Origin: a virus
Taxonomy: Duplodnaviria > Heunggongvirae > Uroviricota > Caudoviricetes
Virus record (IMG/VR): IMGVR_UViG_2713896779_000012
DNA: 8,863 nt
Strand: one strand, 5' to 3'
The position numbers were made by a program, and so were the translations under genes. The number at the start of each line of letters is the position of its first letter. The first letter of the stretch is position 1. The notes beneath the pieces were generated by a model that did not search any database, had not been told where the DNA came from, and saw only the letters and a program-made list of their open reading frames with translations. Shown one piece after another: positions 1,251 through 7,561 of the stretch.

Positions 1251-1891
1251 TTGTCGGTGTACCTCTCTCGTTTGCTCAGTTGTTCAGGAATATGGTGCAG
1301 CAGCTCGCCGTCGCCGCAGTAAATTGCGGCGTGATTCGGCACCGATGAACCAAAACAGCACAGCAGCACATCGCCCGGCTGTGCCGCTGACAACGGCACC
1401 TGATACAGCCCCGTCGCCTCCAGATTATCCAGATAGAGATTCTGGCCGTTACGCCACCAGTCATCCTCACGATGAAAGTCCGGCATCTCAATCCCCGCCA
1501 GATGATAAGCATCCCGGAACAGTGTGTAACAGTCCGTCACACCGTGCTCAAAGCGCCGCCCGGTGAGATGCGGCACACAGCGGAACTTATGAATCGTCCC
1601 CCGGCAGACCAGCCACCACGGCAAATCACTCTGCACCTGCAGCCGCCGGTCGGCCTCACTCAGCCAGGGCAGACCACCGGGGTGGCTGTGGACCAGCGCC
1701 ACAATCTCACCCTGCATTTCTGCCTGCAGCCAGTCTTCCGGCGACATACGGAAATACGCCTCCGGCTCACCGGAGATATTCACGCAGGGGAAATATCTTT
1801 CCCCCTCCGGCGTGCTTACCACGAAGCCGCACGACTCCGCTGGCGCACATCGCCGGGCGTGCGCCAGAATCGCTGATTCTGTCTGTGTCAT
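1100..1891 (-). CDS. K: Tail tip assembly protein K, with JAB/MPN (JAMM-motif) and NlpC/P60-like domains; interrupted near its 3' end by the same 50-N gap
   Basis: ORF MTQTESAILAHARRCAPAESCGFVV...HSHPGGLPWLSEAD...GVTDCYTLFRDAY...ERYTDKW [gap] RRTHSLWRHRAWRASAFTGIYNDLVAASTFV. HSHPGGLPWLSEAD fits the JAMM consensus HxHx7Sx2D. ATG at 1889-1891 is 5 nt after the L stop. The 3' end overlaps the I start. An internal ATG at 1745-1747 (MSPEDW...) is an alternative start. Confidence 0.85.
   Translation of the reverse strand: MTQTESAILAHARRCAPAESCGFVVSTPEGERYFPCVNISGEPEAYFRMSPEDWLQAEMQGEIVALVHSHPGGLPWLSEADRRLQVQSDLPWWLVCRGTIHKFRCVPHLTGRRFEHGVTDCYTLFRDAYHLAGIEMPDFHREDDWWRNGQNLYLDNLEATGLYQVPLSAAQPGDVLLCCFGSSVPNHAAIYCGDGELLHHIPEQLSKRERYTDKWXXXXXXXXXXXXXXXXXRRTHSLWRHRAWRASAFTGIYNDLVAASTFV
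1197..1246. other. Assembly/scaffold gap (50 N) inside the K/I overlap
   Basis: Run of exactly 50 N. Both the K and I reading frames resume in frame after it, consistent with a true gap length of 3n+2 (possibly only 2 nt). Confidence 0.95.
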
Positions 1892-1896
1892 GGGAT

Positions 1897-2699
1897 TTAC
1901 TGCGAAAGTTTGTTAATGGAAAGGAAGCCGCCAAAGTTGCCGACGTTATTGCGGAACTTACAACCGCTCAGGCATTTGCTGCATTTATCCTTCGTGATAT
2001 CGGACGTTGGCTGGTCATATTCATCCGCGACAGCCGGACCGCTATAACCGCACTCGTCACCGCGATAGGTCCAGGTGCAGGTGTTGGCCAGCATGATACG
2101 TCCCGGAAAAACAGCGCCGTCCGTTTCCGTCGGCGTGGACAGTACAAAAGAGGCACTCACCGCGCTCAGTTCGCTGCACTGCTCGATGCGCCAGCGNCTG
2201 ATCACCTCCTGCTCCGGATCGGCGTCNCTGTTTCCGTTGACGAAGTTCACCGCATCCAGAAAACGGGCGTAAACCTTACGCCGGACCACCGTTCCGCCGA
2301 CCAGACTCTGCATATCTTCCACCATCCCGGTGACCATGCCGTACAGGTTAGAGACTGCCAGCGTGGGCCGCGTACTGGTGCCTTTGCCATTCAGTTCAAA
2401 ACCACTCCCCTGAATGGGATACGGCTGATACTGTCTCCCCTGCCAGGTGACCGGCTCACCTTTTTCGTTCTGCTCATTACAGAAAAAATAACGTTCTCNN
2501 NNNNNNNNNNNNNNNNNNNNNNNNNNNNNNNNNNNNNNNNNNNNNNNNAGGTGACCGGCTCACCTTTTTCGTTCTGCTCATTACAGAAAAAATAACGTTC
2601 TCCACCGACCTCTGTCAGATCGATTTCCCAGAGCACCACGCTGGCTGACTGCTCCGCACGGGTGCATTCATTCAGTGTTTCCTGCCGGATATCCTGCAT
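1897..2699 (-). CDS. L: Tail tip protein L (apparently intact; split in the ORF track by a 50-N gap plus 54-bp duplicated contig overlap)
   Basis: N-terminal part (2549-2699) reads MQDIRQETLNECTRAEQSASVVLWEIDLTEVGGERYFFCNEQNEKGEPVT. Sequence below 2498 continues WQGRQYQPYPIQGSGFELNG...MVTGMVEDMQ...FLSINKLSQ*. Removing the 104-nt artifact (one repeat copy plus the gap) leaves 699 nt, i.e. 232 codons plus stop. ATG at 2697-2699 overlaps the M stop (ATGA). Stop TAA at 1897-1899. Single N at 2197 and 2227. Confidence 0.9.
2445..2602. repeat. Assembly artifact: 54-bp perfect direct repeat (2445-2498 and 2549-2602) flanking a 50-N gap (2499-2548); unmerged overlapping contig ends
   Basis: aggtgaccggctcacctttttcgttctgctcattacagaaaaaataacgttctc occurs identically on both sides of the N run, and the post-gap copy starts immediately at the gap edge. 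Collapsing it restores a single in-frame L gene. Confidence 0.9.
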
Positions 2700-3013
2700 C
2701 AGTTCACCACCTGTTTAAACTCTGCGCTGAACTCAACACGCAACATACTGACCTGCGACGACCATTTTGCGCAGGTCACCTTTATCTGCCTGTAACCATA
2801 AGGCGNNNNNNNNNNNNNNNNNNNNNNNNNNNNNNNNNNNNNNNNNNNNNNNNNNTCACGGGAGACAGACAGCGTCACGCTGTACGTTTTCAGGTCAGCG
2901 TTCAGCCCGGCAGGCGCTCGCTGAGAATAGCCATCACCAAAGCGCACCTTTCTTACAGAAGGGACCGAAGCCACATCCATACCTGGTTTCACTTTCCAGC
3001 GGAAGGTCTTCAT
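2699..3013 (-). CDS. M: Tail tip protein M (interrupted by a 50-N scaffold gap at 2806-2855)
   Basis: ORF MKTFRWKVKPGMDVASVPSVRKVRFGDGYSQRAPAGLNADLKTYSVTLSV... [gap] ...PYGYRQIKVTCAKWSSQVSMLRVEFSAEFKQVVN matches lambda gpM as I recall it. ATG at 3011-3013 overlaps the H stop (ATGA). Stop TGA at 2699-2701 overlaps the L start. Confidence 0.88.
   Translation of the reverse strand: MKTFRWKVKPGMDVASVPSVRKVRFGDGYSQRAPAGLNADLKTYSVTLSVSRXXXXXXXXXXXXXXXXXXPYGYRQIKVTCAKWSSQVSMLRVEFSAEFKQVVN
2806..2855. other. Assembly/scaffold gap (50 N) inside M
   Basis: Run of exactly 50 N. The M frame is maintained across it. The true missing length is probably about 65 nt if M is 109 aa as in lambda (from memory). 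Confidence 0.95.
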
Positions 3014-5571
3014 CGTCCACCTCCGGAGAACAGGCCACCATCACGCATCTGTGTCTGAATTTCATCACGGGCACCCTTGCGGGCCATGTCATACACCGCC
3101 TTCAGAGCAGCCGGACCTATCTGCCCGTTCGTGCCGTCGTTGTTAATCACCACATGGTTATTCTGCTCAAACGTCCCGGACGCCTGCGACCGGCTGTCCG
3201 CCATACGGCCCGGTGTACCGACATAACCGCCGGTGGCATAGCCGCGCATCAGCCGGTAAAGATTTCCTACGCCAATCCGGCTGGTTGCCTCCTTCGTGAA
3301 GACAAATTCACCACGGTGAACAATCCCCGCTGGCTCATATTTGCCGCCGGTTCCCGTAAATCCTCCGGTTGCAAAATGGAATTTCGCCGCAGCGGCCTGA
3401 ATGGCTGTACCGCCTGACGCGGATGCGCCGCCACCAACAGCCCCGCCAATGGCGCTGCCGATACTCCCGACAATCCCCACCATTGCCTGCTTAAGCAGAA
3501 TTTCTGTCATCATGGACAGCACGGAACGGGTGAAGCTGCGCCAGTTCTGCTCACTGCCGGTCAGCATCGCCGCCATATTCTGTGCAATACCATCAAAGGT
3601 CTGCGTGGCTGCACTTTTTACCTGCGACATACTGTCCGTGGCGCTCTCTTCCCACTCGCTCCAGCCGGACCTGAGGCCTGCCATCCAGTTCCCGCGAAGC
3701 TGGTCTTCAGCCGCCCAGGTCTTTTTCTGCTCTGACATGACGTTATTCAGCGCCAGCGGATTATCGCCATACTGTTCCTTCAGGCGCTGTTCCGTGGCTT
3801 CCCGTTCTGCCTGCCGGTCAGTCAGCCCCCGGCTTTTCGCATCAATGGCGGCCCGTTTTGCCCGTTGCTGCTGTGCGAATTTATCCGCCTGCTGCGCCAG
3901 CGCGTTCAGGCGCTCCTGATACGTAACCTTGTCGCCAAGTGCAGCCAGCTGGCGTTTGTACTCCAGCGTCTCATCTTTATGCGCCAGCAGGGATTTCTCC
4001 TGTGCAGACAGCTGGCGACGTTGCGCCGCCTCCTCCAGTACCGCGAACTGACTCTCCGCCTTCCACAAATCCCGGCGCTGCTGGCTGATTTTCTCATTTG
4101 CTCCGGCATGCTTCTCCAGCGTCCGGAGTTCTGCCTGAAGCGTCAGCAGGGCAGCATGAGCACTGTCTTCCTGACGATCGCCCGCAGACACCTTCACGCC
4201 GGACTGTTTCGGCTTTTTCAGCGTCGCTTCATAATCCTTTTTCGCCGCCGCCATCAGCGTGTTGTAATCCGCCTGCAGGATTTTCCCGTCTTTCAGTGCC
4301 TTGTTCAGTTCTTCCTGACGGGCGGTATATTTCTCCAGCGGCGTCTGCAGCCGTTCGTAAGCCTTCTGCGCCTCTTCGGTATATTTCAGCCGTGACGCTT
4401 CGGTATCGCTCTGCTGCTGCGCATTTTTGTCCTGTTGAGTCTGCTGCTCAGCCTTCTTTCGGGCGGCTTCAAGCGCAAGACGGGCCTTTTCACGATCATC
4501 CCAGTAACGCGCCCGCGCTTCATCGTTAACAAAATAATCATCCTTGCGCAGATTCCAGATGTCGTCTGCTTTCTTAAACGCAACCTCTGCCTTAATCAGC
4601 ATCTCCTGCGCGGTATCAGGACGACCAATATCCAGCACCGCATCCCACATGGATTTGAATGCCCGCGCAGTCCTGTCTGCCCAGGTCTCCAGCGTGCCCA
4701 TGTTCTCTTTCAGGCGGCGGGTCTGGTCATCAAACCCTTTCGTTGCGGCCTCGTTCGCCGCCTGCAATGCCCCGGCTTCATCGCCGGAACGCTGCAACTG
4801 AGCAACATACGCAATCTGCTCCGCCGTCACGTTATGGAACTGGCGTGCCATCGCCGTCAGCCCCGACGTCGGGTCTGTGGTCAGCTTCCCGAAGGCTTCA
4901 GCGACCTTGTCCACCTCCACGCCGGATGCAGAGGAGAAACGCGCCACACTCTGGCTGATGGACGCAATCTGAGCCTCACCGCTTACCCCCGCCTTAACCA
5001 GTGCGCTGAGTGACTCGCTGGTCTGGTTAAACGTCAGCCCTGCCGCCTGCCCGGCTCTGGACAGGACCAGCATACGATCTGCCGTCAGTCCCGCCTGATT
5101 GCCGGAAAGGACCAGCGTTTTGTTGAAATCGGACAGGGTTGAGTTGCCCTGATACCAGGCATACGCCAGCGCACCGGTCGCCACCGCCAGCGAGGTGGCC
5201 CCCACCATCGGCAGGGTGATCGCACCGGCAAGCCCCCTGAACATGGGGATCATCCCGCCGAAGGAGTCCTTCACCTGCCCCCCCTGTTGCAGCAGGATCA
5301 GCCACGGACTTTGCCCGCCTGCAAGCTGCGTGGCCACGTCGGTGAACTGTGCAGGCAGCATACGCATGGCGGCTTTATACTGCCCGACGGAAATCCCCGC
5401 TTTCTGTGCAGCCAGCGCCTGTCGGCTCAGCGACTGTTCAACGACTGCCGCTGTTTTTTTCGCATCACTTTCCGTACCGGAAAAATGACGCCTGACTCTG
5501 GCCATCTGCTCGTCAAATCTGGCCGCATCCAGACTCAAATCAACGACCAGATCGCCTACCGGTTCAGCCAT
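3010..5571 (-). CDS. H: Tail tape measure protein H (853 aa)
   Basis: Uninterrupted 853-codon ORF. Sequence MAEPVGDLVVDLSLDAARFDEQ...GGLFSGGGR matches lambda gpH, including the Ala/Gln/Lys/Glu-rich helical middle and the Gly-rich hydrophobic segment near the C-terminus. ATG at 5569-5571 is preceded by GGAGGAG (6-nt spacer) and overlaps the end of the T frame. Confidence 0.95.
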   Translation of the reverse strand: MAEPVGDLVVDLSLDAARFDEQMARVRRHFSGTESDAKKTAAVVEQSLSRQALAAQKAGISVGQYKAAMRMLPAQFTDVATQLAGGQSPWLILLQQGGQVKDSFGGMIPMFRGLAGAITLPMVGATSLAVATGALAYAWYQGNSTLSDFNKTLVLSGNQAGLTADRMLVLSRAGQAAGLTFNQTSESLSALVKAGVSGEAQIASISQSVARFSSASGVEVDKVAEAFGKLTTDPTSGLTAMARQFHNVTAEQIAYVAQLQRSGDEAGALQAANEAATKGFDDQTRRLKENMGTLETWADRTARAFKSMWDAVLDIGRPDTAQEMLIKAEVAFKKADDIWNLRKDDYFVNDEARARYWDDREKARLALEAARKKAEQQTQQDKNAQQQSDTEASRLKYTEEAQKAYERLQTPLEKYTARQEELNKALKDGKILQADYNTLMAAAKKDYEATLKKPKQSGVKVSAGDRQEDSAHAALLTLQAELRTLEKHAGANEKISQQRRDLWKAESQFAVLEEAAQRRQLSAQEKSLLAHKDETLEYKRQLAALGDKVTYQERLNALAQQADKFAQQQRAKRAAIDAKSRGLTDRQAEREATEQRLKEQYGDNPLALNNVMSEQKKTWAAEDQLRGNWMAGLRSGWSEWEESATDSMSQVKSAATQTFDGIAQNMAAMLTGSEQNWRSFTRSVLSMMTEILLKQAMVGIVGSIGSAIGGAVGGGASASGGTAIQAAAAKFHFATGGFTGTGGKYEPAGIVHRGEFVFTKEATSRIGVGNLYRLMRGYATGGYVGTPGRMADSRSQASGTFEQNNHVVINNDGTNGQIGPAALKAVYDMARKGARDEIQTQMRDGGLFSGGGR

Positions 5572-6402
5572 ACCGGACTCCTCCTGCGATCCCTTCTGAT
5601 ACTGTCATCAGCATTACGTCATCCTCCGTCATGTCCGCCACATCCGGGGAAGCGGGGATAACTTCATTCCCGTCCGGGCCAAAGCGGACACCTCCGGCAA
5701 GCCCTGCCGCTTTCTGCATCAGCACATCATCTTCAGGCTCTTCGTCAGCCTCGCGCCGGTTCAGCAGACTGAAATCCAGCGGATGCATATCCGGATCGCT
5801 GAAAAACAGGCTGAGCACGGTGTACGTCAGCCCGGAAAAGTGCATATCCAGCAGAACATCATGAAAATAATGGGTACTGTAAAAGCGGTGCCAGTCGGCA
5901 TACTCCGTGGATGACATCCCGGCAAGCATGGCACGCCAGTCGGGTCGCCCCATCTCACGCGCCAGTTTCAGGGCAAAACTCAGCTCACCGTCGAACACTT
6001 TCCCGCAGAAACAGGCTCTGCGGGCCCGGCGTCCTCTGTCTGTTCAGGGGCATTATTCACCACAAACTCATACATACCAGACAGCCGGTACACCACGTTT
6101 TCAGCATGAGAAATTGCCTCCGTGGGCCAGGTGGTAAGCACTTCCTGCTCAATCTGTTTAACGGCTTCATTCATGGACGGCATCTTTGTCTTCTGCGGAT
6201 GGTTATGCCACAGGGACATCGCCACCAGAAACGCGCCGGTTCTGATGGCGTCTTCCACAGTAAACTTCCGATTGCTGTCTGACTCCGCCTGTTCTGCCTG
6301 CCGTTTCATCAGGGCGAGATGCTCAATGCGCTGCAGGGCTGACAGTTCAGAAAGCGTGACGGTCACACCGTTATGTTCAAATGATTCGGTTTTCAGGAAC
6401 AT
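5564..6402 (-). CDS. T: Tail assembly chaperone GT fusion, made by programmed -1 ribosomal frameshift: G frame from 6402 to the slippery site, then T frame to 5564
   Basis: The T-frame ORF (5564-5998, ...FDGELSFALKLAREMGRPDW...GGVRYG) has no start with a ribosome-binding site of its own; its listed start is a GTG inside the slippery site. It overlaps the last codons of G, where the slippery heptamer G GGA AAG sits (5998-6004 on the minus strand). The lambda G/GT frameshift is established knowledge. Confidence 0.85.
5980..6402 (-). CDS. G: Tail assembly chaperone G (140 aa)
   Basis: ORF MFLKTESFEHNGVTVTLSELSALQRIEHLALMKRQ...PVSAGKCSTVS matches lambda gpG. ATG at 6400-6402 with GGAGAG Shine-Dalgarno 6 nt upstream. 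Stop TGA at 5980-5982. Confidence 0.93.
   Translation of the reverse strand: MFLKTESFEHNGVTVTLSELSALQRIEHLALMKRQAEQAESDSNRKFTVEDAIRTGAFLVAMSLWHNHPQKTKMPSMNEAVKQIEQEVLTTWPTEAISHAENVVYRLSGMYEFVVNNAPEQTEDAGPAEPVSAGKCSTVS
5998..6004 (-). promoter_or_regulatory. Programmed -1 ribosomal frameshift slippery heptamer GGGAAAG (G GGA AAG) at the G/T junction
   Basis: Minus-strand mRNA reads ...UCU GCG GGA AAG UGU UCG ACG GUG AGC UGA. After a -1 shift it reads GGG AAA GUG UUC GAC GGU ..., which is the T frame (VFDGELSF...). Confidence 0.85.
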
Positions 6403-6417
6403 CGCTGACTCTCCGGA

Positions 6418-7158
6418 TTAACTGGCGGTGACGGTAATTTCTGCAACCGCAGCAAACTCACCATTACCGGATACAACCGGAATGTTGACCTTGCCTGCAG
6501 CAACGCCGTTCACGGTGATGGTCATACCACTGACCGACACGGTGGCTTTTGTTTTATCCGCAGACACCGCACGAAAGCTCTTGTCGGTTACACCCTCCGG
6601 CTGGAAGGCCACGGTCAGCGTGGTGCTCTGCCCTTTCACCACCGAGGTGCTGGCAGGCGTCACGGTCATGCCGGTTGCCGCTGTTACCGTGCTGCGATCT
6701 TCTGCCATCGACGGACGTCCCACATTGGTGACTTTCACCGTGCGGATGATCACTTCCTTCGCCGTCACCGCCTTACCGATACTGCTGACCCAGCCACGGA
6801 ACACATCGACCGTGCCGTTCGGGAAGCGGATTTTATAGGCACGGGTATCGCCTTCATTAAACCACGCCAGCAGCGCCTGCTGCCCCTGCTCTCCGGGCAT
6901 CCACGCCAGCGTGAAGCTGGTATCTCCGGCAGATTTCTGCCCCTGCCCGGTCGCAGTCCAGTCTGCATCTTCATCATCGAGATAGCTGTCGTCATAGGAC
7001 TCAGCGGTCAGTTCGCCGGGCGTCAGGTCTTTAACTTTTGCCAGACGCGACCAGTCAACGTCTGAAAGCGGGTTCGCATAAGGGTCACCGTTCCCCTTAT
7101 AAACCCACAGTGTGGTCCCGGCACCTTTCACCGGCATTGTAGGATTTGGTACAGGCAT
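6418..7158 (-). CDS. V: Major tail tube protein V (246 aa), including a C-terminal Ig-like domain
   Basis: [25 protein letters not shown]...AEITVTAS matches lambda gpV. I place the start at ATG 7156-7158 (GAGGA Shine-Dalgarno 4 nt upstream), not at the upstream start listed in the ORF track (7188), which would overlap U by 23 nt. Stop TAA at 6418-6420. Confidence 0.92.
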
Positions 7159-7165
7159 ATCGTCC

Positions 7166-7561
7166 TCACATTTCATAGGTAATGACATAAGTCAGATCGG
7201 CAGAACTCCACAGGCCCGCATCATCGTCGCGCCGGTAGTCATAGCCACTGGCCACCATACTGGTGATCAAATCTGACAGTGCCGGGATATCGCTCATCAC
7301 CGGATAAATCCGGGACTCCATCCACGCATCCAGCTCTGAATCCGGTACCTGAGCAGGCAGGAAAACTTCAATATGCAGCTCCGCCTGCCAGGTATCGCTG
7401 TCCAGCTCTTCGCCCGTGTATTCAGCGCCGGTGAGATAAACGGCAACTGCCGGAAAATCCGCCTCATCAAAAACAGCGGGGCGACCATCAAAAAGCGTCG
7501 CCCCGGTGTCATGCTTCTCCAGTGCATCCAGTACGGCTGCACGGAGTTCAGTATGTTTCAT
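7166..7561 (-). CDS. U: Tail tube terminator protein U (131 aa)
   Basis: [34 protein letters not shown]...LTYVITYEM matches lambda gpU. ATG at 7559-7561 overlaps the Z stop (ATGA). Stop TGA at 7166-7168. Confidence 0.93.

Follow-up and report, generated by a model that had tools for sequence, protein, structure and literature searches.

Programmed −1 ribosomal frameshifting at the G/GT junction of phage lambda is already known biology; it counts among the founding examples of programmed −1 frameshifting, and its role in tail assembly is established. It was reportedly shown experimentally by Levin, Hendrix and Casjens in 1993. The lambda slip sequence, GGGAAAG, encodes Gly-Lys in both frames, and approximately 96% of ribosomes stay in frame 0 on it and make gpG, while the rest make gpGT (PMC3296357; PMC7618472). 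Both proteins have been seen by immunoblot, with approximately 4% frameshifting (PMC3296357). The shift rate rises when tRNA-Lys(UUU) is without U34 thiolation (mnm5s2U34), and the phage yield falls (PMC3296357; PMC7618472). Proper tail assembly requires the G:GT ratio of approximately 30:1 that results from the slip frequency: the tape-measure protein gpH is bound by gpG and by the G portion of gpGT, the T portion recruits or binds gpV, the major tail protein, and both gpG and gpGT are absent from the virion (PMC5009743). The heptamer G_GGA_AAG is intrinsically highly shift-prone in Escherichia coli (PMC5009743). The lambda frameshift is thus experimentally documented, and PMC3296357, PMC5009743 and PMC7618472 all cite Levin et al. 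1993 for it. We analyzed the G/T junction in an 8,863-nt stretch of Caudoviricetes DNA (IMG/VR record IMGVR_UViG_2713896779_000012), which is referred to in its full length as the window. Its genes run on the minus strand in the order V-G-T-H, in agreement with the lambda and Prokaryotic Genome Annotation Pipeline (PGAP) annotations.

With near certainty, the site in the window, which belongs to a lambda-like prophage, is the programmed −1 ribosomal frameshift known from G/GT of phage lambda. Its anatomy, its frame relation, its conservation, the lack of a start for T and the identity to lambda are established here, and no sequence feature was found that speaks against frameshifting.

The G/T junction and its conservation

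Gene G (5980..6402; minus strand, as are all features described here) encodes the zero-frame tail assembly chaperone gpG of 140 aa, with its ATG at 6402 and its TGA at 5982..5980, according to the open reading frame (ORF) list and its translation. The slippery heptamer G_GGA_AAG was located at 5998..6004 by inspection of the sequence and a phase check. Its first G occupies the third position of a codon in gene G, so that the zero frame reads G GGA AAG, followed by TGT TCG ACG GTG AGC (Cys-Ser-Thr-Val-Ser) and the TGA. In the −1 frame, the heptamer reads GGG AAA and is followed by GTG TTC GAC, and this frame stays open until the stop at 5566..5564. The heptamer therefore encodes Gly-Lys in both frames, as GGA AAG in frame 0 and as GGG AAA in frame −1. 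The reading of frames also showed that G and T overlap over 64 nt (5980..6043). The overlap begins where the −1 frame opens and ends with the G stop, and only within it could a −1 shift join G to T. The −1-frame segment that forms the T domain of gpGT (5564..5998) comprises 144 codons, from the GTG (Val) at 5998..5996 to the stop. A −1 slip would join 135 residues of G to these 144, giving a predicted gpGT coding region (5564..6402) that is read from 6402 to 5998 in frame 0 and then from 5998 to 5564 in frame −1, with base 5998 read twice. The predicted fusion has 279 aa and a mass of 31.2 kDa, vs 15.6 kDa for G.

An original prediction made from the letters alone had placed the slippery G GGA AAG five codons before the G stop, had followed the T frame to 5564 and had expected a fusion of approximately 279 aa beside the 140-aa G; the heptamer is indeed seen in phase at 6004..5998, the stop lies at 5566..5564, and both lengths were reproduced from the translation. 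Its statement that ORF calling reports T as a stand-alone gene with a GTG start was also borne out by the ORF caller output (5564..5998, 144 aa, GTG start), and its description of the site as the conserved tail-chaperone frameshift agrees with the −1 relation and the shift-prone heptamer in all 255 related loci described below. It erred in stating that the T frame opens exactly at the heptamer. No stop interrupts the −1 frame from 6043 onward, a point next to a TGA at 6046..6044 and 13 codons upstream of the heptamer, and only the first start-like codon of this frame begins at 5998.

The protein encoded by T is identical to lambda T, and gpG differs from lambda gpG by Q73K only. Identity to phage lambda is 99.6% over the G-T segment, a value shared by lambda's laboratory derivatives, and approximately 98.5% over the whole window. 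Higher identities were found to a prophage of E. coli 2014C-3599 (99.8% over the window) and to prophages in several O121 Shiga toxin-producing E. coli (STEC) chromosomes (99.7%), and these values mark the window as a lambda-like E. coli prophage copy, not laboratory lambda. We compared the bases with lambda over 6450..5540 after alignment by an exact anchor, as an indel is present upstream. Three nucleotide differences were found (6271, 6187, and 6186), all of them in G and more than 180 nt upstream of the heptamer; the two-base change at 6186-6187 gives rise to Q73K, and 6271 is one further substitution. The sequence matches lambda for more than 180 nt on both sides of the slip site. Because the three differences all lie at that distance, the surroundings of the slip site are the sequence used in the lambda experiments. 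A 48,361-bp record named 'Campylobacter phage CJLB-4' (MW057783.1) is also 99.6% identical to the lambda G-T segment and names its genes in the lambda style; it has the look of lambda DNA (a sequencing spike-in, for instance, or a contaminant) deposited under another host name.

The protein families are consistent with this identity. G matched Pfam PF06894 (4e-61) and the NCBIfam equivalog TIGR01674 (5e-65; 217 bits, with a cut-off of 74), and the −1-frame ORF of T matched PF06223 (2e-14) and the equivalog TIGR01715 (2e-56; 189 bits, with a cut-off of 77). In the 290-position PHROGs profile phrog_32165, G matches positions 1-142 and T matches positions 140-285, and the family has evidently been built from G-T fusion proteins. 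No PDB chain showed a sequence match to the GT fusion. The 8.9-kb tail module was matched in 4508 of the 5426 complete E. coli genomes, 3466 of which cover at least 80% of the window in one place; the number of tail-module places per genome has a median of 2 and a maximum of 14.

By transfer from the lambda experiments on identical sequence, slippage, its frequency and the roles of the proteins would be expected to be the same here. Ribosomes would start at the G ATG (6402), and most of them would read G GGA AAG and five further codons to give the 140-aa gpG. A few percent would slip back by one base with tRNA-Gly on GGA and tRNA-Lys on AAG, and the two tRNAs would re-pair with GGG and AAA. 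After the slip, GTG would be read as an internal valine, and translation would continue in the T frame to 5564, yielding the 279-aa gpGT.

The conservation of the site was investigated with two sets of relatives. The first was a ladder of 11 phages, chosen by tblastn over a spread of identities (T 73% to 32% identical), which includes PhiR12_2, three kinds of Stx-converting phages, HK225, mEp043, phi80, Fels-1, mEp460 and a Vibrio phage. The second comprised 255 loci with 62 unique junctions, obtained from searches of viral contigs with lambda-, phi80- and Fels-1-type T queries and from annotated records, with T identity down to 38%; the lambda-type T query alone gave only loci with 99–100% identical T and was uninformative for conservation. 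A strict X_XXY_YYZ scan misses G_GAA_AAG, and this site was identified from the phi80 annotation and by alignment.

In 11/11 ladder phages, the frame of T is −1 with respect to that of G, and the heptamer stands one or five codons before the G stop. The lambda, PhiR12_2 and Stx2a types carry G_GGA_AAG; the Stx1 and other Stx2 types carry A_AAA_AAG; HK225, mEp043, phi80, Fels-1 and mEp460 carry G_GAA_AAG; and the Vibrio phage carries C_CCA_AAA. All 255 loci have a shift-prone heptamer at the homologous position together with an open −1 frame (GGAAAAG in 164, GGGAAAG in 87, AAAAAAG in three, and GGGAAAA in one). The single GGGAAAA variant, from a metagenomic contig, reads G_GGA_AAA; two substitutions separate it from its GGAAAAG relatives and restore a canonical slippery pattern. 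The commonest heptamer, G_GAA_AAG, departs from the canonical X_XXY_YYZ form; slippage would place the P-site tRNA-Glu opposite GGA, with G-U at the middle position.

The encoded peptide follows the same boundary. The T-frame peptide G/K-K-x-F/L-x-x-E-L-x-F-x-L-x-L-A-R-E... is conserved starting directly at the heptamer, and among nine homologs with the same spacing, 18 of the 30 columns that vary downstream of the heptamer are third positions of T-frame codons. Because the variable columns are concentrated on these positions, purifying selection switches to the T frame at the heptamer.

Two caveats apply to this reading. The bare heptamer is not enriched in the window, where GGGAAAG occurs in two copies vs 1.22 expected and 68/200 shuffles reach the same count. 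The missing Shine-Dalgarno (SD) sequence of T, described in the next section, does not by itself exclude initiation; gene U in the window also has a weak SD sequence and is presumably translationally coupled. The placement of the heptamer tells more than its number. Within the whole of G, GGGAAAG is the sole in-phase X_XXY_YYZ, and it falls inside the 64-nt overlap; an in-phase heptamer appeared within the last 64 nt in 3.9% of 20,000 codon shuffles of G. The other copy in the window (1803..1797, gene K) is out of phase, its first G being codon position 2, and cannot act as an X_XXY_YYZ site, which makes it an internal negative control. A chance motif was ruled out by the conserved heptamer in 255/255 loci: the heptamer is beyond chance because its conservation across related loci settles the question.

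Possible stimulatory structure, initiation at T and transcriptional slippage

Slippage at the heptamer might depend on a 3' stimulatory RNA structure, as in the signals of dnaX and of insertion sequence (IS) elements. A structure was predicted downstream at 5921..5989, with helix 1 formed by 5989..5983 and 5927..5921 and helix 2 by a 14-bp hairpin at 5964..5929. Helix 1 begins 8 nt after the heptamer, which is the canonical spacing, and the structure has a minimum free energy (MFE) of −38.7 kcal/mol (z = −1.8; 9/200 shuffles fold as well). Across homologs, 90–91% of cells are paired, and compensatory changes occur in helix 1 (16:84 AU/GC/CG; 18:82 CG/UG/GU). In a comparison of 11 homologs, five pairs had changed on both sides, and 0/500 shuffles were as good. 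In the 1993 work of Levin and colleagues, downstream sequence reportedly also influenced the frameshift rate.

Further tests nonetheless gave this structure no support. The RNAalifold covariation term was approximately 0 (+0.08), and the two measures of covariation that are robust to relatedness were not significant on the 62 unique sequences (44/500 and 120/500 shuffles reached the observed values). The Fels-1/mEp460 clade breaks several helix-2 pairs. There was no excess of synonymous-site conservation, with a synonymous diversity of 0.253 in T codons 6-28 vs 0.260 in codons 29-90 (one-sided Mann-Whitney p = 0.40), and paired and unpaired third positions in the structure vary equally. No Rfam family matched at E <= 10 in 5800..6150 on either strand. 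The nucleotide conservation of the segment is explained by the very conserved peptide that it encodes, LAREMGRPDWRAM. No SD-like element was found upstream of the heptamer, where the best duplex in the 20 nt before 5998 (−4.3 kcal/mol) uses the GGGA of the heptamer itself. The heptamer G_GGA_AAG is shift-prone without a helper (PMC5009743). The downstream structure is therefore unsupported as a functional stimulator, and dependence of the slippage on it is unlikely. We consider it quite improbable that the two-helix structure at 5989..5921 adjusts the G:GT ratio as a conserved element of lambda-, phi80- and Stx-type phages; such a stimulator would have escaped notice because the coding segment around it is itself strongly conserved.

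The ORF caller and public records, which list the 144-aa GTG-started coding sequence (CDS), imply that T is a gene in its own right; its translation would begin at the GTG at 5998, by way of a weak GGG/GGGA ribosome-binding site or by coupling to G. In one record, the heptamer's GGG is labelled as a ribosome-binding site. Coupling is conceivable in that the G stop comes 18 nt after the GTG. The best anti-SD pairing in the 20 nt upstream of the GTG, however, is that same −4.3 kcal/mol duplex with the heptamer at a spacing of approximately 1 nt, and it is matched or bettered by 38% of the ATG/GTG/TTG triplets on the minus strand, i.e., it is at background level. The corresponding scores are −6.6 kcal/mol for G (7-nt spacing), −10.3 for H, −10.8 for M, −11.9 for Z and −10.3 for FII, all with sensible spacing. 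The relatives argue in the same direction. Only lambda-type junctions (13/62 unique ones) have GTG as the codon that follows the heptamer; the other 49 have GCC, GTC, GCA, GCT or ACC there. In these non-lambda types, the first possible T start lies 8 to 26 codons inside the conserved peptide. Because GTG is absent in most relatives while the T-frame peptide is conserved from the heptamer onward, it is not a start; the lambda-type GTG is best read as an accident of sequence in a T that lacks its own initiation site. The products described in the literature are gpG and gpGT only (PMC3296357; PMC5009743). Independent translation of T is thus very improbable. The original prediction had regarded the GTG start as artifactual and T as lacking a ribosome-binding site, and both views are upheld by these observations; the independent T start with a functional ribosome-binding site that it had named as contrary evidence was not found, as the T frame has no other candidate with a better site than the GTG.

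Transcriptional slippage, in which RNA polymerase would delete or add an A in the A-run and give a minority mRNA with G and T in frame, has a negligible likelihood: a short A-run is present and the AAAAAAG relatives have six A residues, but the run here is three A residues, whereas polymerase slippage needs far longer runs, and it is not the run length that is conserved but an X_XXY_YYZ-like pattern, in phase and with A_AAG at its end, as is typical of tRNA re-pairing. Such slippage yields fusion proteins in some secretion systems (PMC5009743), but ribosomal frameshifting in lambda GT is explicitly contrasted with it (PMC5009743), and the response of the lambda rate to tRNA-Lys U34 modification is a ribosomal signature (PMC3296357).

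Annotation and other features of the window

The practical value of the ribosomal frameshift reading lies in annotation. The correct feature is complement(join(5564..5998, 5998..6402)) with ribosomal slippage. T is instead listed as a stand-alone GTG-started CDS in the lambda RefSeq record NC_001416 (5603-6037), in the PGAP annotation of E. coli chromosomes (NZ_CP027435, 3366-3800) and in most GenBank phage records. In OM418625, the GGG of the slippery heptamer (2097-2099) is labelled as a ribosome-binding site. Several records of relatives start T at an internal ATG and drop 17-25 conserved residues (L085 843-1256; L088 843-1151; L091 858-1130). Among the records inspected, a join with the label "slippery sequence for -1 translational frameshift" was annotated only in phi80 (FN582354). 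Because the tail region is matched in such a large share of complete E. coli genomes (4508/5426), the mis-annotation is very widely propagated.

The neighboring genes on both sides are those of lambda. The major tail protein gene V (6418..7158) adjoins G upstream, as supported by the lambda and PGAP annotations, the ORF list and a check of the SD sequence. The ORF caller uses the ATG at 7188 for V (256 aa, as in the old record J02459), and the RefSeq-type ATG at 7158 gives 246 aa; the SD pairing is better at 7158 than at 7188 (−5.9 vs −2.2 kcal/mol). In mEp460 (369-392) and HK225 (351-366), the depositors have placed a rho-independent terminator or a stem-loop between V and G, and in mEp460 a second terminator is annotated inside the T coding region (1007-1024). 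The tape-measure gene H (3010..5571; 853 aa), the start of which overlaps the end of T, was identified from the ORF list and the lambda and PGAP annotations, with an SD pairing of −10.3 kcal/mol.

The window is a draft assembly. It contains 50-N gaps at 1197-1246, 2499-2548 and 2806-2855 and single Ns at 459, 473, 477, 488, 2197 and 2227, all of them within the M/L/K/I region. On either side of the 2499-2548 gap stand the same 54 nt, a duplicated contig end, and because of this duplication gene L appears split into two ORFs (2391..2699 and 1897..2337). The split L and the interruption of K at 1197-1246 are assembly artefacts, not pseudogenes.

Comparison with known frameshift systems

In E. 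coli dnaX (A_AAA_AAG), a −1 shift likewise takes place on a heptamer ending in A_AAG that is decoded by tRNA-Lys(mnm5s2UUU). The dnaX signal has an upstream SD-like element and a downstream hairpin, and its shift frequency is high. Unlike dnaX, the site in the window has neither an upstream SD-like sequence nor a supported downstream structure, and the documented lambda rate is approximately 4% (PMC3296357).

The phi80/N15/HK225 type has homologous G and T genes (T approximately 58–64% identical) with T in the −1 frame, a slip site that precedes the G stop by five codons, and A_AAG at the A site. It differs in its heptamer, G_GAA_AAG, in which the P-site Glu codon re-pairs with GGA, and in the next codon, which is GCC or GTC, so that no start-like codon is present.

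The tail assembly chaperones of long-tailed double-stranded DNA (dsDNA) phages form a class in which a conserved frameshift was reportedly described by Xu, Hendrix and Duda in 2004. The shared pattern of the class is a pair of overlapping ORFs between the major tail and tape-measure genes, the second of which has no start of its own and is entered by a shift near the end of the first, as is also the case in 11/11 relatives here. The class also includes other slip sequences, some other types of shift and unrelated proteins, and lambda is its founding member. With lambda G/GT itself, the window shares the genes, the heptamer, the distance to the G stop and the V-G-T-H order, with T 100% identical and G changed by Q73K, and there is essentially no difference at the site.

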